From Gemmatimonadales bacterium (GTDB lineage: Bacteria > Gemmatimonadota > Gemmatimonadetes > Gemmatimonadales > GWC2-71-9): 64,000 bases of DNA. Made by a program: the position numbers and the translations under genes. Below the pieces are notes generated by a model. The model ran no database searches and was not told the DNA's origin. It saw nothing but the letters and a program-made list of their open reading frames with translations. Numbering within the stretch: position 1 is the first letter of the stretch; every line of letters starts with the position of its first letter. Below are positions 16,048 to 46,181 of this stretch, one piece after another. The stretch is from NCBI GenBank assembly GCA_046262715.1, contig JBHEMG010000185.1:2425-66424 (forward strand). Direction: 5' to 3'.

Positions 16048-16055
16048 CCAATGGG

Positions 16056-16083
16056 GCGGTGAGGGGCGCAAGCCCCTCACCGC
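16056..16083. terminator. Bidirectional intrinsic terminator hairpin between convergent genes
   Basis: GCGGTGAGGGGC gcaa GCCCCTCACCGC forms a perfect 12-bp stem with a 4-nt loop, followed by TGCTTATTT on the plus strand. It sits 8 nt after the stop at 16047 and 3 nt from the minus-strand stop at 16087. Confidence 0.7.
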
Positions 16084-16086
16084 TGC

Positions 16087-17079
16087 TTATTTCCAGCCGC
16101 GGAGACTCCGGACAAAATCGTGTAGCAACAAAAACTTCTCATACACCCGCACACCTTTGCGCTTGCGGCCGAACTCGCTGAACAGTTCCCGCAACCTGCC
16201 ACGCCGCGCCACGTAAAACCGGAACGTCTCAGCGAAATCCTCCTGCGGATGCGTCGCGGCGTAGGCGCTCACGAAATCGGTCAACGTGGTCGCAATGCGC
16301 CGCCGCTCGAAGTCCACCCAGTGCTCGTCGGCGACGCGATATGCCTTCCGAACCTCGCCGAAGACGCGCCGGAACCGCCCGGACCGCGTCCAGGTCCAGT
16401 GATGGTACAGAAACGAGTGCCCGAGCTCGTGCAGCAACAATCCCGTCAACATGTTCCAGGAAATCTCGTCGCGGCGGCGTTTGCCGGTCACGTAGCGGCG
16501 GTCGATCTCGATGACCTTGGGCGCGCGGGGAGCGACCCCCGAGACGCCGGGGCGCAGCACGACGCGGTAATGCCAGTCGCGGATTCGGGCCACGATGAGC
16601 AAGCGCCGCGCTCGCCGCAGCGCGCGGGGGATGAGATCGCGGCCGGTCGCATCCTCGCCGCACCATGGGCAGGTGGCCATCCAGTCGTCCACGCCGCGGT
16701 CGCAATGCGGGCAGGCGTTTTGGAAATGATCGTAGCGCCACGTCTGCGTGCGCCCGCACCACGGGCAGAACCGCATCGGGTACATGACGCCGCCACCGCA
16801 CCCCCAGTCGCAGCGCGCGTGGAACTTGAAGCCTTTCGGCGCCTTGAGCGGCTCATCGCTCGAATCCTTGTCCTGGATGTTGCGGCCACACCAGGGGCAG
16901 AACGACGAGGCATCCGAGACCATCCAGCGGCAGTACGCGCACTCGGCCCCGGTCTCCCGCTGCGTGTCGGGCCACTCCTGCTGTCGGCTACAACTTGGGC
17001 AAAAGCTCCAGAATCGCTCCAGCTCGGTGTGACAGCGGGCGCAGCGCAGCTCGGGCGTGGGGACTTCACGGCGGCTCAC
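16087..17079 (-). CDS. Four-fold zinc-ribbon protein fused to a HExxH putative zinc-metallopeptidase domain
   Basis: Four CxxC-x11-13-CPxC units: CARCH..FCPSC, CAYCR..FCPWC, CDWGC..FCPWC and CPHCD..TCPWC. The C-terminal part has LLHELGHSF plus a downstream EDFAETF. The GTG start at 17079 overlaps the upstream stop (GTGA). Confidence 0.75.
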   Translation of the reverse strand: MSRREVPTPELRCARCHTELERFWSFCPSCSRQQEWPDTQRETGAECAYCRWMVSDASSFCPWCGRNIQDKDSSDEPLKAPKGFKFHARCDWGCGGGVMYPMRFCPWCGRTQTWRYDHFQNACPHCDRGVDDWMATCPWCGEDATGRDLIPRALRRARRLLIVARIRDWHYRVVLRPGVSGVAPRAPKVIEIDRRYVTGKRRRDEISWNMLTGLLLHELGHSFLYHHWTWTRSGRFRRVFGEVRKAYRVADEHWVDFERRRIATTLTDFVSAYAATHPQEDFAETFRFYVARRGRLRELFSEFGRKRKGVRVYEKFLLLHDFVRSLRGWK

Positions 17080-18074
17080 CGCTTCATCGCCTCCTCCACG
17101 ATCCGCTGGATGAAGGCGTTGTACTTCATCCCCGCTTTCTCCGCCGCGTCGGCCATTTCGTTTTCGACTGCGAGAAACGGGTTGGGATTGACCTCGAGAA
17201 CGTACACCTCATCGTCGTGCGTCAAGCGCACGTCCACGCGCCCGTAGTCCTGCAGCCAGAGCGCGTGGAACGCCGTGCTGCAGATCTCTCCGATGCGTGT
17301 GGCCAGCTCGGCCGATATACCCTTGGCGAAGACGTTCTTGATCTTCTTGCGCTTGCGGTATTCTTCGTCCCACTTCGCCTTGTAGGTCGCGATGCGATGC
17401 TCGCTCGTCTCCGGCTCGCCGAACGTCATCTCGGTGAGCGGCAACACTTCCACGCTGTCGTTGCCGAGGAGGCCCACGTACACCTCACGCCCCTCCACGA
17501 GCTCCTCGACGATCGCCGCCTGATGATGCTTGGTGTGAATGAACTCGACGCGCTGCGTCAACGATTCGTCGTCTTCGACCACAGACGCCTGCGAGATACC
17601 AATCGACGCGTCCTCGAGCAGCGGCTTCACGATGAGCGGGAAGCGCAACTCGGAGGGCCGCACCAGCTCGTCGTCCTCGTGAAATTCCGCGAACGCCGGC
17701 ACACGAATGTCGTGATACGCGAGGACTTTTTTCGTCAGCGACTTGTTGCGGGCCACCAGCAGCCCCGTCGGAGACGATCCGGTGTAGCGGTAGCCGTACA
17801 TATCGAGAACGGCGGCGACGGCGTACTCGTGGCGCGCGTGCCCCCGAAACGACTCGCAGCCATTGAAGACCAGCTTCGGGCCGAACGCGGCCAGCTTGTC
17901 GAGCAGCGGCCCTATCTCTTCCCCGATGCCAATCATGTGCACGTCGTGGTCGTTCGCCATCAGCGCGCGCGCCACATCGTACTCCGCTTCCTGCGCGTTC
18001 TCGTTCACTTCGCGCTTGAAGGCGGCGTCGTCCCAGTCGGGATGCGGCGAATCGAAGATGACCGCGATTTTCAT
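17076..18074 (-). CDS. ATP-grasp enzyme of the D-alanine--D-alanine ligase family
   Basis: This is the C-terminal 332 aa of ORF 17076..18944: MKIAVIFDSP...NKSLTKKVLAYHDIRVP...FPLIVKPLLEDASIGI...VLEVNPNP. ATG 18074 overlaps the MFS stop (ATGA). The longer N-terminal extension overlaps the MFS gene out of frame. Confidence 0.85.
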   Translation of the reverse strand: MKIAVIFDSPHPDWDDAAFKREVNENAQEAEYDVARALMANDHDVHMIGIGEEIGPLLDKLAAFGPKLVFNGCESFRGHARHEYAVAAVLDMYGYRYTGSSPTGLLVARNKSLTKKVLAYHDIRVPAFAEFHEDDELVRPSELRFPLIVKPLLEDASIGISQASVVEDDESLTQRVEFIHTKHHQAAIVEELVEGREVYVGLLGNDSVEVLPLTEMTFGEPETSEHRIATYKAKWDEEYRKRKKIKNVFAKGISAELATRIGEICSTAFHALWLQDYGRVDVRLTHDDEVYVLEVNPNPFLAVENEMADAAEKAGMKYNAFIQRIVEEAMKR

Positions 18075-19462
18075 ATCGTGACGCGCTCCATGTCCCGAGA
18101 CACCGTCTTCAGGGCGATGAGAATCACGATGCCACCCAACATCCCGACGGCAGGCAGCAGCAGCATCGCCGTGCGCAGGCTCCCCGTCTGATCCGACAGA
18201 TACCCGATGAGCGGCGGCGCCAGCGCGTCGCCGGCAAGGTGCGAGAAGAGCACGAACGCACCCAGAACCGACGCCTGCACCGCCGGCGGCACGACGTCGA
18301 GAATAACCGCAACGAGCGGCCCGTTGTACCACGTATAGAGGAAATACGTCGCCATGATCAGCGGCGCGAACCAGCGGAGATCGTCGACCAGCAGCAGCGC
18401 GACGCAGACCGGGGCCCCGAGCACGAAACCCGCCCCCGAGACGAGCACCCGCCCCCCTCCCCAGCGCTGCTGCAGGCGATCGGCCAAGCGGCCACCAGTA
18501 AGCGCGCCCAGCACGCCACCGCACAGCGCCCACAGACCGAACTCCGCCCCGACGCGGGCGACCGACAGACCGTGCATGCGCTGCATGAACGCGGCCGCCC
18601 AGGCGATCAGACCATTCACCGCGAACGTCACCATCGCGCCGCCGAGAAATATCCAGATCAGTGTCGGCCTGCGCAGCACGTGCACCGCGGCATCTTGGAA
18701 GTCGTCGAGCGCGCCGGCGGCGACGGCACCCGCCTCCGTCGTACGCTTCACAGCCAGAGGCACGAGACGCGAGACGGTGAGCGCGATGCCAGCGCTCATC
18801 CCGACGCCGAACACTGCCGTGCCGATTTGCGAGGGGATTCCTTCGAACAGCGCCAGGATTCCGGCCAATCCGGCTCCGACTCCCGCGCAGATCGCGAGTG
18901 GCCCGATATAGTGTGTGACGCCGTGCATGCCGCTGCGCCACCACTGGAGAAGAATCTCCGCAACGGGCGGCGGTGGATGGCGGTCGAGCTCCCGCAGCCG
19001 CGACGCCAGCAGCGCCAACCCCAGCCCTGGGATGCCCATCCAGATGAACGCCCAGCGCCAGCCGTAATGCTCCGCGATCACGCCGCCGAACCAGATACCG
19101 AGCACTCCACCCAGCGCCATGCCCACCGAGTAGACGCCGATCGCAAACGCGCGGCGCCGCCCCTTGTAGTACTGCGCGATGATGGCCTGCGACGCGGGGC
19201 CGTAGCCGGCCTCACCGAAACCGACCAGTGCGCGGCATGCGAACAGCTGCCAGAAATGCCGCACGATGCCGCCCAACGCGGTCGCCGCACTCCACACCGT
19301 GACGCCCCACGTGATGACGCTGCGGCGCGAGCGCAGATCGCCGATCACGCCGAGCGGCAGCGCCGCCAGCGACAGCACGATGATATACGCCGAACCGAGC
19401 CAGCCGAGCTGGGTGTCGGAAACGCGCAGATCACGTTTGATAGGCTCGAACACCGCAAACAC
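18071..19462 (-). CDS. MFS transporter (annotated from the first canonical start; the true N-terminus probably lies further upstream)
   Basis: Multiple TM helices and the MFS loop motif GDLRSRR. The in-frame sequence upstream of GTG 19462 encodes RAYAAYVLGLLTFVNLLNYLDRNV, a typical MFS TM1, but contains no ATG, GTG or TTG (see findings). Confidence 0.8.
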   Translation of the reverse strand: MFAVFEPIKRDLRVSDTQLGWLGSAYIIVLSLAALPLGVIGDLRSRRSVITWGVTVWSAATALGGIVRHFWQLFACRALVGFGEAGYGPASQAIIAQYYKGRRRAFAIGVYSVGMALGGVLGIWFGGVIAEHYGWRWAFIWMGIPGLGLALLASRLRELDRHPPPPVAEILLQWWRSGMHGVTHYIGPLAICAGVGAGLAGILALFEGIPSQIGTAVFGVGMSAGIALTVSRLVPLAVKRTTEAGAVAAGALDDFQDAAVHVLRRPTLIWIFLGGAMVTFAVNGLIAWAAAFMQRMHGLSVARVGAEFGLWALCGGVLGALTGGRLADRLQQRWGGGRVLVSGAGFVLGAPVCVALLLVDDLRWFAPLIMATYFLYTWYNGPLVAVILDVVPPAVQASVLGAFVLFSHLAGDALAPPLIGYLSDQTGSLRTAMLLLPAVGMLGGIVILIALKTVSRDMERVTI

Positions 19463-19559
19463 GACGTTGCGGTCGAGATAGTTGAGAAGATTGACGAAGG
19501 TCAGCAGTCCCAGGACGTATGCGGCGTACGCCCTGGTGCGGGTGCGAGACTTCGCTCCG

Positions 19560-20696
19560 TCAGGTGGCGCGGCCGCCAGTTGCTGCCTCGGCGCGGGCGT
19601 CCCGATCCGCCTTGGCCTCGAGATAGGAAGTCGTGAGCTCGCGCATCATCTCCGTGCGTTTCTCGTACAGCCGCTTCAGCGGCCGGGGCGCGCGCCGGGC
19701 GAGCGCGTAGGACGCCAGGATCGGAAACGCCACTGTGTTGTCGAGATACGCCACCACCGTCCCCGGCAGCTTGTCGGGATCTACTTTGCCCCAACTCACC
19801 GCCTCCGACGGTGTCGCGCCTGAAAGACCGCCGGTATCGGGACGGGCGTCGGTGAGCTGCAGATAGTAATCGTGGCCCTTTTCGCTGATCCCCAGGACTT
19901 CCTGAATCTGCGGCTCCGTTTGGAGCACGAAATTCTTGGGACTCCCGCCGCCGATGATCAGGATGCCGCTCTTGCCGCCATGAATTTTGGCCGTGAACAC
20001 GATGGCCGACGTTTCATTGACGTCGGCGCTGACGTCGAAGCGCAGCTTGCTGCCCGATAGTGCCTGCTCGGCGACGTTCATTCCGATCGACGAATCGCCT
20101 GGAGACGACGTATAAATTGGGACGGCCGCCGCGTGCGCCGCGCCGAGCACCGATTTGCGCGAGAGACCGAGCGCTTTTTCGCGCTCGAGCACATACCCGC
20201 CGAGCAGATAGTGGTATTCCGCGGTGCTCATCGACCGCTGGAATTCGGGGCGCGCTGAGACTTCACGCACAAAGCGGTCCGTCGACAGGAGCACGTCGTA
20301 ATCGAAGAAGATGTCATAGATCCGCACGACCCCTTCTTCGCGCAGGACGACGTCGTCCGCAAACGGCGTGCCGCGATGCATGGCCATGCCCAGCCCGAAG
20401 TGCGCGTCGTGGTAGAGATTGGCGCCGGTCGAAACGATCCAGTCGAGGAACCCCGCCTCGATGAGCGGAATGATCGTCGACATGCCGAGTCCCGCCGGCG
20501 TCATCGCCCCCGTGAGACTCATGCCCACGGTAACGTCGGCCTCGAGCATGCGCTCGGCAAACAGCCGACACCCTTCACCCAGGCGCCCGGCGTTGTAGGC
20601 GAGAAAGGCGTTGTCGACGAGATCGGCAACCGTTTCTTTCCCGCTGATCGGCTTCGGATTGATGCGCTGTCCGCGCAGGAAGTTGTTTTGCGTCAT
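19560..20696 (-). CDS. Deoxyhypusine synthase-like (DHS / homospermidine synthase-like) NAD-dependent aminobutyl transferase family protein
   Basis: ORF 19560..20879. Conserved from [39 protein letters not shown]...[14 protein letters not shown]...STGANLYHD...[13 protein letters not shown] 20696 overlaps the LOG stop (ATGA). Confidence 0.85.
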
Positions 20697-21463
20697 CGCG
20701 TGGACTGGCCGATCGACTGCATGGCACGGAACGCTCGCGTACGGCGCTCCCGCGCGTCCACAATCCAGCCGAGCGCCTCCTTCGGCTCGTCCGTCACCAG
20801 GAACAGACTGAGATCCTCGGGCGAGATCTTTCCTTCGCCGGCGACGCGTTCCTTCAGCCAGGTGACGAGGCCGGCCCAATAATCGCGGCCGAACAGAACG
20901 ACCGGGAATTGCTTCACCTTGCCCGTCTGCACGAGCGTGAGCGCTTCGAACAACTCATCCATCGTCCCGTATCCGCCCGGGAAGGTGATGAATGCGGTGG
21001 AATACTTTACGAACATCGTCTTACGGACGAAGAAGTAGCGAAAGTTGATCGAGCGCTCTACCCAGCGGTTGGTCCCCTGTTCGAACGGCAGCTCGATGTT
21101 GCAGCCGATCGACAGGCCGCCGCCCTCCTTGGCTCCGCGGTTCGCGGCTTCCATGATCCCCGGGCCGCCACCGGTGATGATCGCAAACCCCTCCTTGGCG
21201 AGCAACCGTGACGTCTCGTGCGCGGCCGCGTAGTAGGGGTCACTTTCGGGCGTGCGCGCCGAGCCGAAGACCGTCACGGCGTTGCGCACGTCCGACAGCG
21301 TATCAAATCCCTCGACGAACTCGCCCATGATGCGCAGCACGCGCCACGGATCGGTGCTCGTGAAGGATGCCCGCCGCTCGATCGGAACGACCTGCGGCGG
21401 GATGAGGAGCTGCTCGTCCTCAGTGAGTGGGCTGCGAGGCGAGGCGCTCGGTTGCTCTGACAT
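20693..21463 (-). CDS. LOG family / TIGR00730 Rossmann-fold protein (often mis-annotated as lysine decarboxylase; phosphoribohydrolase family)
   Basis: Motifs [14 protein letters not shown] and [14 protein letters not shown], with a long N-terminal extension. The start is either ATG 21463 or ATG 21505; both overlap the 3' end of the upstream gene. Confidence 0.8.
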
Positions 21464-22583
21464 GGTCTTCCTGCACGTTATAGAAGAAGGGCGAGAACCG
21501 GACATGGCCCGGCCGCGTGTCGGCGATGACGCCGCCGGCTGCCAGGTGCCGCACCGACGCCGCGGGATCGGGCATCGGGATCATCACAATCGCCGAGCGC
21601 TGCCGGGGGTCGGCGGCCACCTTCGGGGTGAATCCCGCCCCGCGCGCCCGCGTGATGAGATCTTCGGTCAGGGCGGCGGTCACGTCGCGAATCGTGGGCA
21701 CGCCGATCTCTTCGATGTATTCGAGCCCGCCGAGCTGTGCGTATACTGCCGCGAGTGATGGCGTGCCGAGCTCGAAGCGCCGGGCATCGTCGTGGAACGT
21801 CAGCGCGCGTGGATCAAAAGCAAACTGATCGCGTTGCCCGAACCACCCCGAGATGCGCGGCTGAAGACGACGGGCGACCGCGTCGCGAACATACAGAAAC
21901 ACGATGCCCGGTCCCCCCAGCAGCCACTTCAAACCGCCGCCGACGAGGGCGTCTACGCCGGCCGCTTGCACGTCCACCGGGATCTGGCCGACCGCCTGGT
22001 AGGCATCGATCAAACAGAGTGCGCCGTGGGTGTGCGCCGCGTCGGCCACGCGCTTGATATCCTGAATCGCGCCGCTGGTGAAATAGACGTGTGAGGTCAC
22101 GACGAGCGCCGTGCGATCGTCGATCGCCCGCGCGATCGCGTCCACCGGCACGCTGATCTTGTCGGGACTCTCGACGATCACCAGCTCGACGCCCTGCGGC
22201 GCCTTCGCCAGCCACTGGTAGGCCACGGTCGGGAAGTCGAGGGACGTCACGACGACCCGCGGCCGCCGGGTGTAATCAATCGATTCGGCGACCGCGCTCA
22301 GCGCGACCGAAATGCTGGGCGCCAGAGCGATCTCGCCCGGCGCGGCGTTGACGATACGGGCGTAGCGAGCGCGCAACTCGATCAGCGCTTCCCACCAGAC
22401 ATTATACCACGCCGAGGCTCCGCGGCTCTGCCACAAATCAAGGAATTCCGCTACTTTGCGGCGGGACCGCTCGCCGAGGGCTCCCAGCGAGCAGGTATTG
22501 AGATAGACGCTGTTCTCAAAGATCGGGAACTCGCCGCGGTATTTGGCGAGTCCAAGCGCGCGCGGCTCTACGGCGAGCGTCAT
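21420..22583 (-). CDS. Aminotransferase class-V fold PLP-dependent enzyme (kynureninase / cysteine desulfurase-like superfamily)
   Basis: ORF 21420..22634. FPIFENSVYLNTCSLG, DAYQAVGQIPVD, and GGGLKWLLGGPG (putative PLP lysine). The start is ATG 22583 or GTG 22634. Confidence 0.8.
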   Translation of the reverse strand: MTLAVEPRALGLAKYRGEFPIFENSVYLNTCSLGALGERSRRKVAEFLDLWQSRGASAWYNVWWEALIELRARYARIVNAAPGEIALAPSISVALSAVAESIDYTRRPRVVVTSLDFPTVAYQWLAKAPQGVELVIVESPDKISVPVDAIARAIDDRTALVVTSHVYFTSGAIQDIKRVADAAHTHGALCLIDAYQAVGQIPVDVQAAGVDALVGGGLKWLLGGPGIVFLYVRDAVARRLQPRISGWFGQRDQFAFDPRALTFHDDARRFELGTPSLAAVYAQLGGLEYIEEIGVPTIRDVTAALTEDLITRARGAGFTPKVAADPRQRSAIVMIPMPDPAASVRHLAAGGVIADTRPGHVRFSPFFYNVQEDHVRATERLASQPTH

Positions 22584-22606
22584 AGGCCGGGGAATATACA
22601 GAAGGA

Positions 22607-22873
22607 ATGCGGCGTATCGCGAGTTGGTCCACACTCTATGTGCGTCTGGCGCTCAAGGCGCTGCTGCGTCCGCGACTCGCCGTCGACCTGTTGCGACTCG
22701 CGTGGAGTTTTCGCGCCCGCGATTGGTATCGCCACGCACCATTTCTGCCGATCCCACCTCGGGATTACATGCAGTGGCGCATGTTCACCGCGTACGGCGA
22801 CGCGGACGCCGTGCCGCCGGTGGATGACATCGCCAACTTCGCCCGCTGGCGCCGCGAGACGATGGGGCTGTGA
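22607..22873 (+). CDS. Hypothetical small protein (88 aa), coupled to queG
   Basis: ORF track entry. Its TGA stop overlaps the queG GTG (GTGA at 22870-22873). Basic and hydrophobic N-terminus. I recognise no family. Confidence 0.5.
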   Translation: MRRIASWSTLYVRLALKALLRPRLAVDLLRLAWSFRARDWYRHAPFLPIPPRDYMQWRMFTAYGDADAVPPVDDIANFARWRRETMGL

Positions 22874-23793
22874 TCGCGCTCAAGCAGCGCGCAGCGGCGT
22901 TGGGCTTTAGCGCAACTGGCATCGCCCGGCTCGATCGCAACCCGCACGCCGACGAGCTGGACCGCTGGCTGGCTGCCGCGCATGCCGGCACGATGACCTA
23001 CCTCAACCGCCAGGCCGAGAAGCGCAAGAACCCGCAGCTGATCATGCTCGGCGCGAGAACGGCGGTCGTCACGCTCACCAACTATTTCCACGGATCGAAT
23101 GACGCCGAGTCGGACGCGCGGAGTCGGGGCAAGGTGGCACAGTACGCTTGGTCTTCAGACTACCACGACGTGCTGGGCGCTCGTCTGGAGCAGCTGGCCG
23201 CGGCCATTCGCGAGCTCGTGCCCGGCTCCACGACACGCTGTTATGTGGACGCGGGACCAGTGCCCGAGCGCGAGCTGGCGCAGCTCGCCGGACTCGGCTG
23301 GATCGGCAAGAACATGATGTTGATTCACCCCGAGCTCGGCTCGTTCACCTTCATCGGAGTCGTGCTGACCGATGCCGACCTCCCGGCCGATCTGCCCTTC
23401 GAAGCCGACCGGTGCGGCACGTGCCGGCGCTGTCTCGATGCCTGCCCCACACAGGCGTTCGTCGCACCCCGCAATCTCGATGCGCGCGCGTGCATTTCGT
23501 ATCTCACCATCGAGCATCGCGGCGCATTCACCGAGATGCAGCGCACTCAAGTGGGTGAGTGGTTATTCGGGTGCGACGCATGCCAGGATGTGTGTCCCTG
23601 GAACGTGAGTTTTGCCCAGGTCACCCACGATCCGGGCTTCGTGCCCCGCCAGCATGTGGCGCATGCCGACGCACACGCGCTCGCAACGGTGCGGCAGGAC
23701 GAGTTCGCGTCCCATTACGGTGACACGCCGTTCCGTCGCCCCGGACTTCAGGGAATGCGACGCAATGCCGCGGCGGTATTGCTGGACGTATGA
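22870..23793 (+). CDS. queG: tRNA epoxyqueuosine(34) reductase
   Basis: AQYAWSSDYHDV, GLGWIGKN and two ferredoxin-type clusters: CGTCRRCLDACP and CDACQDVCPWN. Confidence 0.9.
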   Translation: MIALKQRAAALGFSATGIARLDRNPHADELDRWLAAAHAGTMTYLNRQAEKRKNPQLIMLGARTAVVTLTNYFHGSNDAESDARSRGKVAQYAWSSDYHDVLGARLEQLAAAIRELVPGSTTRCYVDAGPVPERELAQLAGLGWIGKNMMLIHPELGSFTFIGVVLTDADLPADLPFEADRCGTCRRCLDACPTQAFVAPRNLDARACISYLTIEHRGAFTEMQRTQVGEWLFGCDACQDVCPWNVSFAQVTHDPGFVPRQHVAHADAHALATVRQDEFASHYGDTPFRRPGLQGMRRNAAAVLLDV

Positions 23794-33124: not shown

Positions 33125-33544
33125 CTACGCCCGCGCCAAAGAGGCCTGCCCGCGGGTAGCCTGCGGCGCTTGGCCCGCGTCTTCGCCCATCCGCAGGACG
33201 CCGTTGATCTCGCCACCCTCTTGGATCAACAGGCGTTTGGTGTGCACGTCGCCGTGCACGACACTGGTGGCTTGGAGCTCGACCCGCTCCTCGGCATAGA
33301 TCGCCCCGCGCACCTCGCCGCCGATGATTGCTTCGCGGCTCACGACGTCGCCTTCGACTTCCCCGCCCCGCGCTACGAGCACTTGCTTGGCGGCGCGCAC
33401 GGTGCCGTTCACGGAGCCTTCGATTTTTACGACGCCGTCGGCCGAGATGTCGCCCACGACGCGCATGCCGGCGCCGATGATCGAGAGCCCGGGAACGCCT
33501 TCGCGCCCACCGGCGCTCGTGCCTTTTTCGGTGAACACCGCCAT
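33125..33544 (-). CDS. Bactofilin (polymer-forming cytoskeletal protein, CcmA family)
   Basis: Repetitive beta-helix pattern: IIGAGMRVVGDISADGVVKIEGSVNGTVRAAKQVLVARGGEVEGDVVSREAIIGGEVRGAIYA. Confidence 0.85.
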   Translation of the reverse strand: MAVFTEKGTSAGGREGVPGLSIIGAGMRVVGDISADGVVKIEGSVNGTVRAAKQVLVARGGEVEGDVVSREAIIGGEVRGAIYAEERVELQATSVVHGDVHTKRLLIQEGGEINGVLRMGEDAGQAPQATRGQASLARA

Positions 33545-34362
33545 CAGTGCGTTCCTCCCTGTTTTACCATGTCCATCGGATCGATCGATTTGCCGTCGTG
33601 GCGAATTTCGAAATGCAGGTGCGGCGCGGTGGAGCGGCCCGAATTCCCCGACAAGCCGATCACTTGCCCTGCCTGAACATTGTCGCCCTCGGCTGCCAGG
33701 AGCCGTGACGTGTGACCATACATCGTCTCATAGCCGGACGGGTGCCGCAAGAGCACGAACAACCCATAGTCGGGATCGTAGCCGGCGGCCGTCACCCTTC
33801 CCCCTCCCGAGGCCCGTACCGGCGTACTGATCGGCACGGCAATGTCGATGCCGGGATGAGACTCATCGAGCACGCCAGGCCGGATCTGCCCGCGGGTGAC
33901 GAATCCCGCGACATCGAGCGGCCAGTGCGACGGCACGGAGGCGCCGAGCTCGTACGCGGTCAAGGCTCCCGGGAGCGACGCCCGGATCGCGACGGCACGC
34001 ATCGTCGTGCTCAGATCACTGCTGCGCGCCACCGTTCCCCCGCTGCGCGTCACGGGCGGTGCCTTCACACCCAGCATTTGGCGCAGCTCCTGGTAATTCG
34101 CCTCGGCGCGGTTCAATGCCGAAGCAAGCTGTTGGACGCGGCTGTTCTCGACGCGCAGCCGCGAGACTTCACGCTCCAAGACCGGCGCGCGCGCGGCGTT
34201 TCGCGCGATCGGCCCCGCAAATGCGAAGAACAGGACGATCAGGATCGCGACCGCCAACGCGCCCCACTTCCCCGCCATGACCGCCCAGCGCGGGAAACGG
34301 TACTGTTTGGATTCGAGGTCGCCGTCCGCGTGGACGACGATGGTGACGCCCCGCGTGGTCAT
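33544..34362 (-). CDS. M23 family metallopeptidase (LytM-type) with an N-terminal TM and coiled-coil region
   Basis: HPGIDIAVPISTPVRA...YGHTS...GNSGRSTAPHLHFEI. Its stop shares 1 nt with the bactofilin ATG (TGATG). Confidence 0.9.
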   Translation of the reverse strand: MTTRGVTIVVHADGDLESKQYRFPRWAVMAGKWGALAVAILIVLFFAFAGPIARNAARAPVLEREVSRLRVENSRVQQLASALNRAEANYQELRQMLGVKAPPVTRSGGTVARSSDLSTTMRAVAIRASLPGALTAYELGASVPSHWPLDVAGFVTRGQIRPGVLDESHPGIDIAVPISTPVRASGGGRVTAAGYDPDYGLFVLLRHPSGYETMYGHTSRLLAAEGDNVQAGQVIGLSGNSGRSTAPHLHFEIRHDGKSIDPMDMVKQGGTH

Positions 34363-35252
34363 CCGTCGAACGGCGCGCCCAGGATCAGCTCGAGAAGTCG
34401 AGCGAGGTCGTCATTCGAATAGAAGGACAAATGGATCTGTCCTTTCCCTTTTGCCCGAAGCGTAACCCGGACATCAGTCCCGAGGCGGCGGCGCAGCGCA
34501 TCTTCGACCCTGCGCACCTCGGGGGCGGCACCCATCCCTCGTTTCATGCGCGGTCGACGTTCCGGCGCGCGGCCGCCGCGCACACGGTCCTCAACCTCGC
34601 GCACCGACAACCCCTGTGCGACGGCCTCGCGCGCCAGATTCGTCACGACGCGCGGATCTTCCAACGCAAGCAGCGCGCGTGCGTGACCGACCGACAGCTG
34701 GTTCTCGTGCAGCATGTCGAGCACGGCTTCGGGCAGTTTGAGCAACCGAAGCGCATTCGCGACAGTGGAGCGATCCCGGCCGACGGCGTCGGCGACGTCT
34801 TGCTGCGCCAATTTGAATTCGGCGATCAGCCGCTCGTATCCGCGGGCTTCATCCACGGGGGAAAGATCGTCGCGCTGCAGGTTCTCGATCAGCGCCAGCG
34901 TCAGCAGCGTGCGATCATCCGCGTCGCGCTGCACGGCGGGGATGCGTTCCCAGCCTAGCTGCTGACATGCCCGCAACCGCCGCTCCCCAGCGATCAGCTC
35001 GTAGCCGCTGGTGCCACCGTTGGCCCGCCGCACGACAATCGGTTGGAGCAATCCGGCTTGCTTGATGGAAGAGACGAGCTCTTCCAGGGCGCCGGGGTCA
35101 ACGGTCTTGCGCGGCTGGAAGGGGTTGGGACGAATGTCCTGAATCGGTAGCTCGACCAGACTGCCTTCGCGCTGGGCTTCTTCCCGCGTCGGCCCAAGCA
35201 GGGCTTCGAGCCCTCGGCCGAGGCGACGTCCTCCTGCGGCGGTCTCCGTCAT
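34359..35252 (-). CDS. parB: Chromosome partitioning protein ParB (Spo0J)
   Basis: NPFQPRK, LLQPIVVRR, YELIAGERRLRA and an HTH region. ATGA overlaps are present on both sides. Confidence 0.9.
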   Translation of the reverse strand: MTETAAGGRRLGRGLEALLGPTREEAQREGSLVELPIQDIRPNPFQPRKTVDPGALEELVSSIKQAGLLQPIVVRRANGGTSGYELIAGERRLRACQQLGWERIPAVQRDADDRTLLTLALIENLQRDDLSPVDEARGYERLIAEFKLAQQDVADAVGRDRSTVANALRLLKLPEAVLDMLHENQLSVGHARALLALEDPRVVTNLAREAVAQGLSVREVEDRVRGGRAPERRPRMKRGMGAAPEVRRVEDALRRRLGTDVRVTLRAKGKGQIHLSFYSNDDLARLLELILGAPFDG

Positions 35253-36076
35253 GCGGGCACCTCCGGCGAAGGTTCAATAGCGGGGAGGCCAGGCGAGGGG
35301 GGGGCGCCTTGCTCGACCCGTCGGATCAATTCCTGCGCGACCGCGAGGTAACTCTTCGCGCCGATCGATTGCACGTCGTAGAGCACAATTGGCTTCCCGA
35401 AACTCGGCGCTTCCGCGAGACGCACGTTGCGCGGAATCGTGACGTTGAACATGCGACCGCCGAAATACTCTTTGGCTTCTTCGGCCACCTGCTTGCAGAG
35501 ATTGAGGCGCGCGTCGTACATCGTCAGCAGCACGCCCTCGATCGCGAGCGCCGGATTGAAATTGCGCTGCACGAGCTTGACGGTATTGAGAAGCTGCGAC
35601 AGCCCTTCGAGCGCGTAGCACTCGCACTGAATCGGGATGATCACACTGTCGGCTGCGGTCAGCATGTTGAGCGTGAGCAGCCCGAGCGAGGGCGGGCAGT
35701 CGATAATGACGTAGGTGTACTCTTCGCGAATTGCCCGCAGCGCATCGCGCATGCGCGTCTCGCGCGAGCGCTGGCTCACGAGCTCCAGCTCCGCGCCGAC
35801 CAGATCCTGCGTGGCAGGTATAACGTCGAGATAAGGAAAGTGTACGTGCGGAAAACGTGCCTGGGTGAGCGCGGAACCCTCGATTATCGCGTCGTAGAGC
35901 GAATGTCGAATACGGTCGCGCTCGATCCCGACGCCGCTGGTGGAATTTCCCTGCGGATCGGCATCGATGAGCAAGGTCTTTCGCTCGGCGGTCGCGAGAG
36001 ACGCGGCGAGGTTGACGGCGGTCGTCGTTTTGCCGACGCCGCCCTTTTGGTTTGCGATCGCGATTACGCGCGACAT
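35249..36076 (-). CDS. parA: Chromosome partitioning ATPase ParA (Soj)
   Basis: Deviant Walker A IAIANQKGGVGKTTTAVNLA, and YVIIDCPPSLG. Confidence 0.95.
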   Translation of the reverse strand: MSRVIAIANQKGGVGKTTTAVNLAASLATAERKTLLIDADPQGNSTSGVGIERDRIRHSLYDAIIEGSALTQARFPHVHFPYLDVIPATQDLVGAELELVSQRSRETRMRDALRAIREEYTYVIIDCPPSLGLLTLNMLTAADSVIIPIQCECYALEGLSQLLNTVKLVQRNFNPALAIEGVLLTMYDARLNLCKQVAEEAKEYFGGRMFNVTIPRNVRLAEAPSFGKPIVLYDVQSIGAKSYLAVAQELIRRVEQGAPPSPGLPAIEPSPEVPA

Positions 36077-36101
36077 TGTAACATGTTGTTGGACAAGAGG
36101 T

Positions 36102-36131
36102 TATCTAGCTCGCATTTTCGTGTGGGTCCAA
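36102..36131 (-). promoter_or_regulatory. Candidate sigma-70-type promoter of parA
   Basis: The minus strand reads TTGGAC - 18 nt - TAGATA, and parS-1 lies immediately upstream. This is pattern-based only. Confidence 0.3.
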
Positions 36132-36139
36132 TATAAGGT

Positions 36140-36155
36140 CGTTTCACGTGAAACG
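36140..36155. promoter_or_regulatory. parS centromere site 1
   Basis: cGTTTCACGTGAAACg has a perfect palindromic core matching the TGTTNCACGTGAAACA consensus. Confidence 0.85.
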
Positions 36156-36165
36156 AAAGTGCCTA

Positions 36166-36181
36166 AGTTTCACGTGAAACT
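36166..36181. promoter_or_regulatory. parS centromere site 2
   Basis: aGTTTCACGTGAAACt has the same 14-bp core, 26 bp from site 1. Confidence 0.85.
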
Positions 36182-36193
36182 GCAATCAGGGGT

Positions 36194-38059
36194 TCAGGCG
36201 ACCCGGCGACGCCAGCGAGTCGCCTCGAAAACGAGGTTGTGGAGGTCACTCGGGGAGACGCCGGGGACGCGAGCCGCTTGGGCCAGCGAAGCCGGTCGCA
36301 CACGATCGAGTTTCTGCCGCGCCTCCGTTGCCAGCGTCCGCAGCTCGAGGTAGGGGAGATCCGGGGGCAGCACGAACGACGCGAGCTCCGCGAGCCGCGC
36401 AGCCGCCTCACGCTCGCGCGCCAAATACCCGTCGTACTTGATCTCGATCTCCGCCGCCATGACGGCTTCGGCAGATGGCGGTACCAGCCCAGCTGCCGCG
36501 AATAGCGCCGACAACGACACGCCGGGCCGCTTTGCTACGACGGCAATCCGCTCGCTCTCGGTCAGCGATGTCCCGCTTGCTCGCAAAGCACCTGCTGCCC
36601 GCGCGGGCGTGATGGTCGTCGCGCGGGCGAGCTGCAAAACCGAGATTTCGTCGTCCAAGCGGCGCTCCGCTGCGCGCAGCTCGACGTCAGTAAGCAGCCC
36701 CAACCGCTCGGCCAGTGGCACTAAACGACGTAGCGCGTTGTCCTGGCGGAGCAGCAGCCGGAACTCGGAGCGGGACGTAAAGAGCCGGTATGGTTCGTCC
36801 ACTCCGCGCGTCACCAGGTCATCCACCAACACCCCGATATACGCGTCGTCACGGCCGAGGACGACGGGCTCGGCGCCTCGGATCCGCCGCACCGCGTTGA
36901 TCCCGGCGACCGCGCCTTGTCCCGCCGCTTCCTCATAACCGGTCGTGCCGTTGATTTGCCCCGCAAAGAACAGATGCTCGACCGTCTTCACCTCGAGCCA
37001 AGGCGTGAGCTGCGTCGGCGGATAGTAGTCGTACTCGATCGCGTACCCGGGGCGTGTCATCTTCGCGTTCTCGAGACCCGGGACCGCCCTGAGGAACTCG
37101 AGTTGTACCGCTACGGGCAGGGAAGTCGAAAGGCCGTTCACGTAGAGCTCGGCTGTGTCGAGACCCTCAGGCTCGAGAAAAACCTGGTGCCGCTTTGCAT
37201 CGGGAAACTTCACGATCTTGTCCTCCACGGACGGGCAGTAGCGCGGTCCGCGACCGCTGATGGCACCGCCGTAGAGCGCCGACTCTTGCAGATGCGTCTG
37301 AATGATCTGCTTGACCGCTTCGCCAGCCCACGTAATCCAGCACGGCAATTGCCGCGGCCGCTCAAGGCGCTCGTGGAAAGAGAAGCGGAAGTCATCGCTG
37401 TCGCCGTCCTGCCGGTCAACCTTGCTCCAATTCACTGACCGACCGTCGATGCGTGGCGGCGTACCGGTCTTGAAGCGTGATACCGTAAGTCCAAGATTTT
37501 CAATGACTTGCGCCATCTGTACGGATGGTGCTTCACCAGCCCGGCCTGCGGGAATCTGTGTGTCGGTACCGAGGTGGATGCGGCCGCGGAGGAATGTGCC
37601 GGCGGTGATGATGACCGCGCGCGCGGTGAGCCGGCGACCATCGGCGGTTTCGACGCCGGCGATACGTGTGCCGCCGTTGGCAAAGTGCAGATTTGTGACC
37701 ATCCCTTGCATCAGCTCGAGGGAAGTGAATTGCTCGAGCAGCGCACGCACCGCGCGCTTGTAGAGCACCCGATCACACTGCGCGCGCGGGGCCCAGACCG
37801 CGGGACCCTTTGAGCGATTGAGCATCCGGAACTGAATGGTGGCGCGATCGGCGGCCCGGCCCATGATGCCTCCGAGGGCATCGACTTCGCGAACGACGGT
37901 CCCCTTCGCAATGCCGCCGATCGCGGGATTGCACGACATCTGTCCGATGGTTTCGAGGTTGGAGGTAAGCAGCAACGTCATGGCTCCGAGACGCGCCGTC
38001 ATAGCGGCGGCCTCGGTGCCGGCGTGACCTCCACCGATAACTATGACGTCATAGTCCAC
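36194..38059 (-). CDS. mnmG: tRNA uridine-5-carboxymethylaminomethyl(34) synthesis enzyme MnmG (GidA)
   Basis: DYDVIVIGGGHAGTEAA, NPAIGGIAKG, GPRYCPSVEDK, FFAGQINGTTGYEEAA. GTG start. Confidence 0.95.
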   Translation of the reverse strand: MDYDVIVIGGGHAGTEAAAMTARLGAMTLLLTSNLETIGQMSCNPAIGGIAKGTVVREVDALGGIMGRAADRATIQFRMLNRSKGPAVWAPRAQCDRVLYKRAVRALLEQFTSLELMQGMVTNLHFANGGTRIAGVETADGRRLTARAVIITAGTFLRGRIHLGTDTQIPAGRAGEAPSVQMAQVIENLGLTVSRFKTGTPPRIDGRSVNWSKVDRQDGDSDDFRFSFHERLERPRQLPCWITWAGEAVKQIIQTHLQESALYGGAISGRGPRYCPSVEDKIVKFPDAKRHQVFLEPEGLDTAELYVNGLSTSLPVAVQLEFLRAVPGLENAKMTRPGYAIEYDYYPPTQLTPWLEVKTVEHLFFAGQINGTTGYEEAAGQGAVAGINAVRRIRGAEPVVLGRDDAYIGVLVDDLVTRGVDEPYRLFTSRSEFRLLLRQDNALRRLVPLAERLGLLTDVELRAAERRLDDEISVLQLARATTITPARAAGALRASGTSLTESERIAVVAKRPGVSLSALFAAAGLVPPSAEAVMAAEIEIKYDGYLAREREAAARLAELASFVLPPDLPYLELRTLATEARQKLDRVRPASLAQAARVPGVSPSDLHNLVFEATRWRRRVA

Positions 38060-38127
38060 AGCCGAAGTATATCGGGCCGGGCAACGAAACGTCGAGGGAG
38101 ACGGCCAGTTGCCGAGACGCGGAGGGG

Positions 38128-38514
38128 CTATGAGGCGCGAGGTAGGGGGGTGCGTGTTGCCGCGTCACTGATCTTTCGCAGCAGACCGTAAAGCGTCCGG
38201 CCTGTTTCATTGACCAAGGCTTCTAGGCGGCCGAAATCAGCAGGCGTGATGTAATCAAGTTCTCGCGCTATCTCGATTATCGTCTCGACCTCGGCGAGTG
38301 AGCCTCGAGCGGTATCCAGAAAACGTCTGTATTCTCGCGAGCCTTTTCGTGTATTGCCGTCGGCGATATTGAGCGGGACGCTGTAACATGCTCGTCTGAG
38401 CTGATCAGCCAGCGCTCCCTGCTCGTAATCCGGAAAGCCCCGTGACATCCGCACGCATTCGATCGCGAGTCTTTGTGCATGCTGCCAGGCTTTCAGAGTC
38501 TTGTAGTGGGCCAT
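38128..38514 (-). CDS. Four-helix-bundle protein (23S rRNA intervening-sequence protein / TIGR02436 family)
   Basis: ORF 38128..38550, with the conserved start MAHYKTLKAWQHAQRLAIEC...QLRRACYSVPLNIADG...GSLAEVETIIEIAREL. GC content is visibly lower than in the flanks. Confidence 0.8.
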   Translation of the reverse strand: MAHYKTLKAWQHAQRLAIECVRMSRGFPDYEQGALADQLRRACYSVPLNIADGNTRKGSREYRRFLDTARGSLAEVETIIEIARELDYITPADFGRLEALVNETGRTLYGLLRKISDAATRTPLPRAS

Positions 38515-40897: not shown

Positions 40898-42208
40898 TTA
40901 GGCCGGAACGCCGAAAAGCGCACCCGCTTTCCGGACCGCGGCGACTAACGCGTCGACGTCGTCCACGTCGTTGTAGATGTAAAAGGAAGCGCGCGCCGTT
41001 GCCGCCACACCGAGACGCCGCATGAGCGGTTGGGTGCAGTGATGGCCGGCGCGAATGCAGACGCCGTCGCGGTCGAGAATCGTTGCAAGGTCGTGCGGAT
41101 GGATATCGCCATAGGTGAACGGCACCACACCGGCCCGATGATCGCGCGGCCCGTAGACCGTCACACCGTCGATTTCGCCCAGCCGTTCGATCGCAATACG
41201 CGCGAGATCCCGCTCGTGCTCGGAGACCTGTTCCATCCCGAGCTGCTCCAGATAGGCGATCGCGGCTCCCAAACCGACGGCGGCCTCGACGTTGGGCGTC
41301 CCGCCCTCGAACTTGTGCGGAATCTTGTTCCAGCTGGAGCGGTCGTCCCACACGCGCTCGATCATTTCACCGCCGCCATGGTAGGGTGGCATCTCCTCCA
41401 AGAGCGCCGGTTTGGCGACGAGCGCTCCGCTCCCCATGGGCGCGAGCATCTTGTGGCCGGAGAGGGCGTAGAAGTCGCAGTCGAGCGCCTGAACGTCGAC
41501 CCGCAGATGGGGGCTCGACTGGGCCCCGTCCACCATCGTGACCGCCCCCGCCGCGTGGGCCAGCTTGCAGAGCTGCCCCACCGGGTTCACGGTCCCAAGG
41601 GAGTTCGAGACATAAGGAAAGGCAACGAGCTTGGGCAGCAATTCGAGCGCGCGGCCGAAGTCCGACAGGTCGATCCGTCCGTCGGCCGTGATCTCGACCA
41701 TCCGGAGGCTGGCGCCCTTTTCCTGACAGAGGATCTGCCATGGCACGATGTTGGAATGGTGATCCATGGCCGTTACTACCACGGTATCGCCGCGGCTCAC
41801 GTTGGCGCGGCCCCAGGACGAGGCGACGAGGTTGATCGCCTCGGTCGTGCCGCGCGTGAACACCACGCCTTCCCGCGCCCAGGCATTCACGAACCGGGCG
41901 ACGGCGGTTCGCCCCGCTTCATACGCCTCCGTTGCCTCCACCGCCAGCGCGTACGCGCCGCGGTGGACGTTCGCGTTGTGAAAGCTGTAGTAGTGGACGA
42001 GAGCCTCGATCACTTTTCGCGGCTTCTGGCTGGTTGCGGCGTTGTCGAGGTACACAAGCCGCTGCCCGTTCTCTTTTTGCGAGAGAATCGGGAAGTCAGG
42101 CCGTATGCGGCTGGTGTCGATCAGAAATCCCGCGCGGACTCGGTCGTGACCGGCTCGGCGCTCTTTTGCAGCGCCGCGTGCAAGGCATGCCACGCGAGGC
42201 TCGCGCAC
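40898..42208 (-). CDS. sufS: Cysteine desulfurase SufS
   Basis: RPDFPILSQ...VYLDNAATSQKP, SGHKMLAPMGSG, RAGHHCTQPLM. The listed ATG 42208 would overlap sufU by 88 nt; a CTG overlapping the sufU stop is an alternative (see findings). Confidence 0.9.
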   Translation of the reverse strand: MREPRVACLARGAAKERRAGHDRVRAGFLIDTSRIRPDFPILSQKENGQRLVYLDNAATSQKPRKVIEALVHYYSFHNANVHRGAYALAVEATEAYEAGRTAVARFVNAWAREGVVFTRGTTEAINLVASSWGRANVSRGDTVVVTAMDHHSNIVPWQILCQEKGASLRMVEITADGRIDLSDFGRALELLPKLVAFPYVSNSLGTVNPVGQLCKLAHAAGAVTMVDGAQSSPHLRVDVQALDCDFYALSGHKMLAPMGSGALVAKPALLEEMPPYHGGGEMIERVWDDRSSWNKIPHKFEGGTPNVEAAVGLGAAIAYLEQLGMEQVSEHERDLARIAIERLGEIDGVTVYGPRDHRAGVVPFTYGDIHPHDLATILDRDGVCIRAGHHCTQPLMRRLGVAATARASFYIYNDVDDVDALVAAVRKAGALFGVPA

Positions 42209-42579
42209 TTGATGCGGCTCGGGAATGCACGCACACCGGAAAACGCCACGAGCTTGCCGGGCGCACTTGCGCCGCCCGCGAGCATTTCACGAAAGGCCTG
42301 GAACATTCCCTCGGCGTCGGCGACGGGCTTTCCTTTGACGGCGTCGGTCATTAGCGACGCGGACGCCTTGGAGATGGCGCAGCCTGCGCCCTGCGGCATC
42401 TGAAATCCGATGTCGCTGATCTTGTCGTCGTCGACCTGCACGTAGAGCTGAATGCGATCACCGCACAGCGGATTATTCCCCTCGGCTCGATGACTCGCTG
42501 TCTCCATCCGTTTGAAATTCCGCGGATTGCGATTGTGGTCGAGAATGACCTGCTGATAGAGATCCCCGAGATCGGTCAC
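42121..42579 (-). CDS. sufU: SUF system NifU-family Fe-S scaffold SufU
   Basis: LYQQVILDHNRNPRNF, NPLCGD, GAGCAISKASAS, RIKCASLAW. Confidence 0.85.
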   Translation of the reverse strand: MTDLGDLYQQVILDHNRNPRNFKRMETASHRAEGNNPLCGDRIQLYVQVDDDKISDIGFQMPQGAGCAISKASASLMTDAVKGKPVADAEGMFQAFREMLAGGASAPGKLVAFSGVRAFPSRIKCASLAWHALHAALQKSAEPVTTESARDF

Positions 42580-43898: not shown

Positions 43899-44685
43899 GA
43901 CACCATCACGCCATCACGCAGCCAGTCGTAGCCTCGGGCCTCGAGTTCTTGTGCCAGTTCGGGACCCCCGGACTTCACGATCCGCCCGTGCGCCAGGACG
44001 TGGACGACGTCCGGCGTGATGTAGTCCAGCAGCCGCTGGTAGTGCGTCACGATCAAGAAGGAGCGATCGGGACTCCGCAGCTTGTTCACCGTCTCGGCGA
44101 CCGTTTTCAGGGCGTCGATGTCGAGGCCCGAGTCGGTTTCATCGAGAACGGCCAGCCTGGGCTCGAGCACAGCGAGCTGCAGGATCTCGTTGCGTTTCTT
44201 CTCGCCGCCCGAGAAGCCCTCGTTCACCGGACGGTTCATCATCGTGTCGTCCCAGCCGATGGCTTTCAGCTTCGCTTCGAGCACCTGGAGGAAATCGATC
44301 GGATCGAGCTCCGGCTGGCCGCGATGCCTGCGCAGCGAGTTGAGCGCCGAGCGCAGGAAATAGGAGTTCGTGATGCCGCGAATCTCGACGGGATACTGGA
44401 ACGCGAGAAACACGCCTTCACGCGCGCGCTCCTCAGGCTTGAGATCGAGCAAGTCCTTGCCGTCGTAGGTCGCGCTGCCGCCGAGCACCGTGTAGGCCGG
44501 ATGACCGGCGAGCACCTGGGCGAGCGTGCTCTTGCCCGAGCCGTTCGGCCCCATGATCGCGTGCACTTCCCCGTCGCGGATGGTGAGATCCACGCCCTTC
44601 AGAATCTCGGTGCCGGCAACAGCGACGCGCAGTCCTTTCACCTGCAGGAGCACGTTTGCCGTTTCCCGTTTCTCGCGTCCCGACA

Positions 44686-44686
<1 letters not shown>
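43895..44686 (-). CDS. sufC: Fe-S cluster assembly ATPase SufC
   Basis: This is the internal part of ORF 43895..44935. LQVKGLRVAV...GPNGSGKSTL, FSGGEKKRNEILQ, AVLDETDSGLD. ATG 44686 overlaps the sufB stop (TAATG). Confidence 0.95.
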
Positions 44687-46119
<1,433 letters not shown>

Positions 46120-46181
46120 CGCGCCCTTGGAAGTCGTTGCAAGACATGAGTTTGGCAATTAAAAACTGAGCTCAATTGGGA

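Follow-up and report, generated by a model that had tools for sequence, protein, structure and literature searches.

A six-gene Gemmatimonadales operon containing a SpeY-type polyamine gene, possibly a composite of separable units

Here we describe six tightly coupled genes in a 64,000-nt stretch of DNA from the metagenome-assembled genome (MAG) of a soil Gemmatimonadales bacterium (GenBank assembly GCA_046262715.1, contig JBHEMG010000185.1; hereafter the window), whose base composition is ~65% G+C. The genes encode, in order, a class-V pyridoxal-5'-phosphate (PLP) enzyme, a LOG-family protein, a deoxyhypusine synthase (DHS)-like protein that we assign to SpeY, a major facilitator superfamily (MFS) transporter, an ATP-grasp protein and a protein combining zinc ribbons with a Peptidase_Mx domain, which we call ZNR (Table 1). 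The original prediction, made from the DNA letters, proposed that they form one undescribed polyamine-derived pathway. Our comparative evidence weakens rather than strengthens this proposal: SpeY is a known enzyme, the flanking genes are as conserved as the six, the ATP-grasp and PLP genes have been lost in relatives, and parts of the array occur as separate units elsewhere. We lean, with modest confidence, towards a co-transcribed, translationally coupled composite operon built from separable units, as opposed to a demonstrated six-step pathway, and we infer that no obligatory biochemical link joins these units.

According to this reading, the array would have arisen once in a Gemmatimonadales sub-lineage by the joining of older, separable units, and would then have been inherited vertically along with its flanking genes. 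The first unit would be an older LOG-SpeY pair, found in Longimicrobiales-type genomes too. Its SpeY would couple two agmatines in an NAD-dependent reaction to N1,N9-bis(guanidino)homospermidine, which a ureohydrolase or iminohydrolase encoded elsewhere would convert to homospermidine. The second unit would be an older, autonomous and phylum-restricted ATP-grasp-ZNR pair, in which ZNR would be the indispensable member and the ligase, which resembles D-Ala-D-Ala ligase (Ddl), a frequent yet dispensable partner. The two proteins might act as a 'make and break' amide ligase/peptidase pair on a peptide or protein substrate. A kynureninase-like PLP gene and a Spinster-like MFS gene would be clade-specific additions.

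Assignment of the DHS-like gene to SpeY

By profile and motif, the DHS-like gene is a SpeY orthologue. Its product scored 546.2 bits against the NCBIfam model NF001980 'homospermidine biosynthesis protein' (equivalog cut-off 450; residues 12-360 of 378) and 227 bits against Pfam DS, whereas the models of true DHS were not reached (TIGR00321, 170 bits vs. a cut-off of 304; NF002006, 226 vs. 434). The translation carries the motifs GGGSPKN, at the NAD site, and EAVSWGK, with the catalytic lysine, and the columns of both were invariant or nearly so in 12 distant SpeYs. Its identity to SpeY of other phyla was 66-72%. SpeYs of diverse phyla have been shown to join two molecules of agmatine into N1,N9-bis(guanidino)homospermidine (G44G), which SpeB-like ureohydrolases or AIH/NCPAH convert to homospermidine (Li et al., J Biol Chem 2026, PMC13625781); a Thermus SpeY-type enzyme characterised earlier also performs agmatine coupling (PMC10981699). 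Because it is orthologous to these characterised SpeYs, the product of the enzyme encoded here is most probably the bis-guanidino precursor from which homospermidine is formed.

The expectation that one gene of the operon encodes a polyamine enzyme was thus borne out by the NF001980 score, while the activity first proposed for it, aminobutyl transfer from spermidine, was not: the protein is a SpeY by this model, and the published SpeYs use two agmatines. The locus shares with the SpeY/CdmS pathway (Anabaena SpeY, T. thermophilus TTHA1570) the enzyme family, the catalytic lysine and the NAD motif. It differs in its neighbours, which are LOG, PLP, MFS, ATP-grasp and ZNR in place of the arginine decarboxylase (ADC) plus SpeB, or the AIH/NCPAH, that known SpeY clusters include (PMC13625781).

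SpeY fusions were considered as Rosetta-stone evidence and rejected. The long SpeY representatives were either intein-bearing (P0121, P0137) or frameshifted/chimeric gene calls (P0127, P0236, P0200, P0159), and none of them was a fusion to LOG, ATP-grasp or ZNR. The intein lies after ~residue 295 in P0121 (645 aa) and P0137 (725 aa), whose identities to the window SpeY are 69% and 46%, respectively; one of the two inteins has HNH/NUMOD3 homing-endonuclease motifs.

Single origin and gene loss within Gemmatimonadales

A ZNR alignment was used to scan the species genomes of GTDB. It matched at least 387 of them, and the best 80 (≥75% ZNR identity) were examined; the presence of each gene was counted at its expected position, in loci with enough flank only (Table 1). 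Nearly all of the 80 have this array, and its neighbours are shared as well where the flank is long enough. All close relatives of the window were labelled Gemmatimonadales. The array extends well beyond this genome, as the six genes were found together in ~60 species-level Gemmatimonadales MAGs of GTDB. The most conserved proteins were LOG, SpeY and ZNR, with median identities of 89%, 88% and 84%, respectively. However, the unrelated flanking genes (QueG, a small ORF and DAO) were equally conserved, and the conservation of the six genes is therefore that of an inherited block. What we observe is block synteny in a related group, from which the six genes do not stand out.

The junctions were largely retained in these relatives. 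PLP and LOG overlap in 62/62 clade loci and ATP-grasp and ZNR in 58/69, while LOG and SpeY overlap by 4 nt in 36/69, the remainder having gaps of 1-15 nt. A gap of 109-127 nt precedes the ATP-grasp gene in 13/64 relatives.

Not all loci are complete. The syntenic position of the ATP-grasp gene was empty in 10/77 clade loci and also in L174, which is not the behaviour of an indispensable housekeeping gene, and the PLP gene was cleanly absent in two loci, L055 and L064. In locus L174, the flanks known from the window enclose only LOG, SpeY and ZNR, whose junctions are a 4-nt overlap and a gap of 12 nt; L175 has all six genes. In a neighbour-joining tree of 168 ZNR sequences, a stand-alone clade was separated from a SpeY-linked clade, and the groups lacking ATP-grasp (L071, L054, L040-48) and L174 were nested within the latter. 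This nesting indicates that the array originated once and that ATP-grasp was lost at least four times thereafter, and PLP several times (L055, L064, L174).

Separate units outside the clade

A second scan covered JGI metagenomes with a more distant ZNR as lead query and yielded 80 loci, in which ZNR was 61-72% identical to that of the window. ATP-grasp lay immediately upstream of ZNR in ~62 of the 80, and ZNR stood alone in at least seven loci with adequate flank. None of the 80 had SpeY, LOG, PLP or a co-oriented MFS gene, and neither SpeY nor LOG occurred within 10 kb. Three further loci (L001-L003) likewise have ATP-grasp-ZNR and lack the other four genes. Among 82 loci with ATP-grasp-ZNR, no other neighbour was conserved in more than 18, and those were mostly on the opposite strand.

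The other unit is also found by itself. In three Longimicrobiales-type loci (L086, L171, L172), LOG and SpeY stand together with gaps of 11-16 nt, and the other four genes are absent. At SpeY loci of five other lineages, including Kryptonia, Thermoanaerobaculia and Blastocatellia, none of the five partner genes was present. The genes are therefore scattered beyond the clade, where they form separate units, and remain together within it.

Two observations concern these distant loci. The Longimicrobiales-type loci have, in divergent orientation and ~1-2 kb upstream of the LOG-SpeY pair, genes for a double-zinc-ribbon (DZR) protein of 246-247 aa (L086, 4541-5284; L171/L172, 2587-3327) and an Slr1353_N protein; at E ≤ 1e-8, tblastn did not match the former to ZNR. 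In the Kryptonia locus L087 (7001-9306), the gene that follows SpeY and overlaps it encodes ArgJ (ornithine acetyltransferase), an arrangement that fits a SpeY pathway fed by arginine/agmatine.

The ATP-grasp and ZNR proteins

The ATP-grasp protein scored 101 bits against Pfam Dala_Dala_lig_C but stayed below both Ddl models (NF002378, 132 bits vs. a cut-off of 243; TIGR01205, 118 vs. 246), and its best Ddl match in the PDB had E = 4e-17. An identical protein at NCBI bears only the name 'ATP-grasp domain-containing protein', and among the 120 matches listed in a homologue search all were ≥82% identical and from Gemmatimonadales, with no distant relatives in view. It has in common with the Ddl/VanA family the ATP-grasp fold, the Dala_Dala_lig_C domain and the conserved RVD and LEVN metal/transition-state motifs. 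It differs from that family in that other sequence stands in place of the N-terminal GGxSxEhxVS motif and of the C-terminal D-Ala2-binding segment, its gene has been lost repeatedly in relatives, and the partner of that gene is a peptidase gene instead of a cell-wall cluster. These features point to a Ddl-like amide ligase and not to a canonical D-Ala-D-Ala ligase.

ZNR consists of four N-terminal zinc ribbons and a C-terminal HExxH...EDFAE zinc-metallopeptidase domain. It scored 51.4 bits against Peptidase_Mx (PF15887; gathering cut-off 27) and 44 bits against DZR. The 16 ribbon cysteines and H217, E218, H221, E280 and E284 were invariant in 12 sequences; across 54 sequences nearly all of these positions were invariant, the five catalytic-domain residues without exception. 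An AF2 model built from the 54 sequences was of low confidence (pLDDT 61). Its Foldseek matches in the PDB (PPEP-1, anthrax LF, 4L7A) were weak, none having E < 0.1, and only agree with a zincin-type fold. No signal peptide or lipobox was apparent in the translation, which was inspected by eye only, and ZNR is predicted to be cytosolic.

The nearest relatives of known structure are Peptidase_Mx SusCD-associated zinc metallohydrolase lipoproteins of Bacteroidota (9URD, 4L7A). The likeness lies in the HExxH and EDFxE motifs, over which the ZNR family profile matches 9URD and so covers the catalytic core. ZNR differs from these lipoproteins in its four zinc ribbons, in having no apparent lipobox and in the ATP-grasp gene that usually precedes its own. 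ZNR is a Peptidase_Mx member of a new architecture, predicted to be cytosolic and with four zinc ribbons.

ZNR is encoded in at least 387 species genomes of GTDB, in most cases together with the Ddl-like ligase. With the exception of two probably mis-binned contigs, all genomes and contigs carrying it were labelled Gemmatimonadota. The exceptions are L019, of a Krumholzibacteriia MAG (2.4 kb), and L002, of a Kofleriaceae MAG, with ZNR identities of 92% and 65%, respectively; both are probably binning errors and not a sign of wider distribution. L019 and a second Kofleriaceae-linked contig, L003, are each shorter than 3 kb. Searches of the literature on Peptidase_Mx, on ATP-grasp with a zinc-ribbon metallopeptidase, and on Gemmatimonadetes with homospermidine gave nothing relevant, and neither this operon nor the ATP-grasp/ZNR pair was described in the literature searched.

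Pairs in which a ligase makes and a hydrolase breaks an amide bond include glutathionylspermidine synthetase/amidase, RimK with a partner protease, and LysX-LysW-LysK; LysW-type carriers are zinc-ribbon proteins. By analogy, ATP-grasp-ZNR would resemble them as an ATP-dependent amide ligase encoded with a hydrolase. However, no sequence kinship to these pairs beyond the ATP-grasp fold was found, ZNR has no acidic LysW-like tail, and many lineages keep the ZNR hydrolase but not the ligase.

Operon architecture

The six minus-strand ORFs fill positions 16087-22583, and their order and Pfam domains agree with those named in the original prediction. The four junctions given there in full also stood when the sequence was read. 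The PLP stop (21422-21420) lies within LOG, whose ATG is at 21463, giving a 44-nt overlap; LOG/SpeY and MFS/ATP-grasp are joined by ATGA (20693-20696 and 18071-18074), and ATP-grasp/ZNR by GTGA (17076-17079). As predicted, no internal promoters were seen: a consensus promoter scan called no sigma-70-like promoter inside the unit. On this evidence the six genes are a real, tightly coupled operon.

The unit had been said to end at a strong hairpin terminator. The hairpin downstream of ZNR is real, with a fold energy of -31.7 kcal/mol (z = -3.4), but a T-rich tail follows it on the plus strand only, where it serves the convergent gene ending at 16047. The terminator scan made a plus-strand call only, and neither the scan nor the sequence gave a U-tract on the minus strand, that of the operon. 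The hairpin is likely a bidirectional transcription stop shared by the convergent genes.

At the other end, only 23 nt separate the PLP ATG (22583, minus) from the ATG (22607, plus) of a divergent 88-aa ORF, which has no Pfam match and is ATGA-coupled to QueG. Both the operon and this small ORF/QueG unit are probably expressed as leaderless mRNAs. A TATATT box upstream of PLP is a candidate promoter for the leaderless transcript of the operon, although it was not among the calls of the consensus promoter scan.

Table 1. Genes and sequence elements of the operon and its surroundings in the window, with the number of Gemmatimonadales clade loci in which each gene was found
Feature	Position	Strand	Description	Clade loci
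PLP enzyme (Aminotran_5)	21420-22583	minus	387 aa, operon gene 1	60/62
LOG (Lysine_decarbox/LDcluster4)	20693-21463	minus	256 aa	64/64
SpeY (Pfam DS)	19560-20696	minus	378 aa	67/67
MFS transporter (MFS_1)	18071 to ~19579	minus	~500 aa, start codon uncertain	70/70
ATP-grasp (Dala_Dala_lig_C)	17076-18074	minus	332 aa	67/77
ZNR (DZR + Peptidase_Mx)	16087-17079	minus	330 aa	80/80
Hairpin	16056-16083 (element 16055-16084)	between convergent genes	GCGGTGAGGGGC-TTGC-GCCCCTCACCGC; GC-rich, 12-13 bp	
TATATT box	22593-22598	minus	9 nt upstream of PLP ATG, read from sequence; candidate -10 element	
Divergent ORF (flank)	22607-22873	plus	88 aa	62/62
QueG (flank)	22870-23793		ATGA-coupled to the 88-aa ORF	59/59
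DAO (flank)				54/54
suf Fe-S cluster	40898-46158		Two SufB/D-type genes and a SufS-type class-V gene	
SufS-type class-V gene	40898-42286		Aminotran_5, 461 bits	

The MFS transporter and its start codon

The MFS protein is a Spinster-like transporter by sequence. It scored 163 bits against Pfam MFS_1, and among solved structures it matched 6E8J, a bacterial Spinster homologue, best (E = 1.2e-33) and SPNS1/SPNS2 next.

Its junction with SpeY is unusual. The MFS frame, +1 relative to SpeY, opens 83 nt before the stop codon of SpeY, and the first transmembrane segment (TM1, 'LNYLDR') is encoded shortly after that stop. The original prediction was right that TM1 coding directly follows SpeY, but no ATG, GTG or TTG lies between the upstream in-frame stop and TM1 (19462-19645, minus), and the first canonical start codon, GTG 19462, falls inside TM1. 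A candidate start is CTG 19579-19577, which is preceded by GAGG and lies within the 3' end of SpeY. The same absence of ATG, GTG and TTG before TM1 was found in 25/47 clade loci (among L004-L085 and L175), and a CTG lies 25-36 codons upstream of 'NYLDR' in 39/47. In one relative, the gene caller chose ATC as the start.

Translation of MFS likely begins at a non-canonical codon or by re-initiation. A programmed frameshift producing a SpeY-MFS fusion was also considered and rejected, as the sole apparent fusion protein was an error-ridden gene call; the conserved CTG with GAGG before it would be the simpler explanation.

The LOG and PLP proteins

LOG scored 149.1 bits against TIGR00730 (cut-off 96.35), 261-267 bits against PDB 5ZI9 and 5WQ3 (267 for 5ZI9) and 230 bits against T. 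thermophilus TT1465 (1WEK), all of which we take to be type-II LOGs, 'type II' being our own classification. Its translation has the motif PGGYGTMDE, of the PGGxGTxxE type. The score against the cytokinin riboside 5'-monophosphate phosphoribohydrolase equivalog NF058542 was 56.5 bits, below the cut-off of 300. LOG can be regarded, from these scores, as an ordinary type-II LOG-family (TIGR00730) nucleotide phosphoribohydrolase-like protein. It is like the type-II LOGs in that these matches run across the LOG domain and the PGGxGTxxE motif is kept, and unlike them in the conserved, often overlapping, LOG-SpeY adjacency in Gemmatimonadota, of which the literature surveyed makes no mention.

The PLP protein scored 121 bits against Pfam Aminotran_5 and also matched KYNU_C. 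Its top solved structure by sequence was P. fluorescens kynureninase 1QZ9 (E = 1e-34), in a nearly full-length alignment (residues 11-363). The PLP lysine, the pyridine-N Asp, GWFG and the C-terminal substrate-carboxylate Arg are kept, and the active-site segments pair as LKWL/YKYL, IDAY/WDLA and VRF/MRF. The score against the kynureninase model TIGR01814 was 92.9 bits, below the cut-off of 246.4, and against SufS 99.8 bits, below 475. The protein is best described as a kynureninase-like class-V (fold-type I) PLP enzyme. Apart from the score under the cut-off, it differs from kynureninase in having no adjacent tryptophan-catabolic gene and in being dispensable in the clade. A role as housekeeping cysteine desulfurase was ruled out, because a true suf cluster with its own SufS-type gene lies elsewhere in the window, making the PLP gene of the operon a paralogue.

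Two observations on the locus as a whole can be added. A PADLOC search with the six proteins gave nothing specific, the only matches being generic class-V ones (DndA/SspA) for PLP and a weak SLOG match for LOG, and an anti-phage defence reading was dropped. The operon may be located near the origin of replication. At a distance of 11-15 kb from it there is a Peptidase_M23 gene, and the interval 33544-38164 of the window also has ORFs whose translations resemble ParB, ParA and GidA/MnmG; in L174 (1-4266), GidA, ParA, ParB, M23, bactofilin and NIF3 lie within 7 kb of LOG-SpeY.

Discussion

Several findings weigh against an operon of merely separable units. Tight gene coupling is maintained across the clade. 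Where ATP-grasp is missing, MFS and ZNR overlap by 4 nt in 8/10 loci, and L174 keeps ZNR directly behind SpeY. This re-coupling and the L174 arrangement show that co-expression of ZNR with LOG-SpeY is under selection, and a genuine link in function could lie behind it. The first two of the rival readings below, though less likely, therefore still carry weight. Moreover, the LOG-SpeY adjacency in two orders matches no chemistry known to us. Finally, no member of the ADC, agmatinase or agmatine iminohydrolase families was present among the 46 scanned ORFs of the window (64 kb) or in the clade loci, so the pathway context typical of SpeY in other phyla is missing here.

One alternative, which we consider unlikely, is that the six genes form one dedicated pathway for making and exporting an amide conjugate derived from homospermidine or G44G. 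SpeY would supply the polyamine; ATP-grasp, in analogy to the ligase/amidase scheme of glutathionylspermidine synthetase/amidase, would couple it to the carboxylate of an amino acid or peptide; ZNR would trim or recycle the conjugate; the Spinster-like MFS would export the amphipathic product; and PLP and LOG would supply or salvage precursors. The single operon with overlapping junctions, kept in ~60 species, argues for it, as does the position of ZNR, which remains beside SpeY or MFS after gene losses. The Spinster family also handles amphipathic amines, e.g., sphingosine-1-phosphate, as judged from the molecule names of the PDB matches. However, ATP-grasp was lost at least four times and PLP several times while the rest was retained, and on the other side of the ZNR tree ATP-grasp-ZNR is nowhere near SpeY. 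SpeY of other phyla does without these partners, both in the loci examined and in published clusters (PMC13625781), and with equally conserved flanks synteny alone carries no functional signal. An undescribed route from homospermidine, or its bis-guanidino precursor, to an aminoacyl or peptidyl polyamine conjugate, made by ATP-grasp, edited or recycled by ZNR and exported by MFS, is accordingly a doubtful prospect.

It is also improbable, in our judgement, that LOG, SpeY and ZNR are a functional core, in which ZNR and/or LOG would regulate or process something tied to homospermidine synthesis, with MFS, ATP-grasp and PLP as accessories. L174 keeps exactly these three genes, which were never lost from the SpeY-linked clade loci (64/64, 67/67 and 80/80 for LOG, SpeY and ZNR) and encode the most conserved proteins, and the LOG-SpeY pair recurs in the Longimicrobiales-type loci. 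Those loci have no ZNR, however, just as the stand-alone ZNR clade has no SpeY or LOG within 10 kb. L174 is a single long-branch locus among six-gene loci, and is therefore most simply a deletion product. We also know of no chemistry that joins LOG and SpeY.

A last reading takes up the protein-modification system proposed earlier: the DHS homologue would place a deoxyhypusine-like aminobutyl group on a protein such as EF-P, and ATP-grasp and ZNR would be a further writer and eraser. In its favour are the DHS-family fold, the conserved catalytic lysine and, by our own analogy, a resemblance of ATP-grasp plus peptidase to protein-tail writer/eraser pairs (RimK, TTL/CCP). We consider it highly implausible. 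By its model scores the protein passes the equivalog cut-off of SpeY but falls well short of true DHS, and in the published work agmatine is what diverse SpeYs turn into G44G (PMC13625781). Moreover, neither the operon nor its immediate surroundings include an EF-P/eIF5A-like gene, and the ATP-grasp gene is dispensable.

The reading that we prefer is an operon composed of separable units. If its parts are merely co-expressed, it would be a case of ordinary operon accretion around a characterised polyamine gene. The analysis corrects the annotation, in that the DHS-like gene is a SpeY, acting on agmatine and not spermidine by orthology, and the ATP-grasp protein is not a canonical Ddl. It also establishes a LOG-SpeY adjacency, often overlapping, that holds across two Gemmatimonadota orders. 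The truly uncharacterised part of the operon is the phylum-restricted ATP-grasp/ZNR pair, which may be a new phylum-specific ligase/peptidase system with ZNR as its essential component. Gemmatimonadota are abundant in soil and few have been cultured. Thus, a function for a phylum-wide pair would be of some value.

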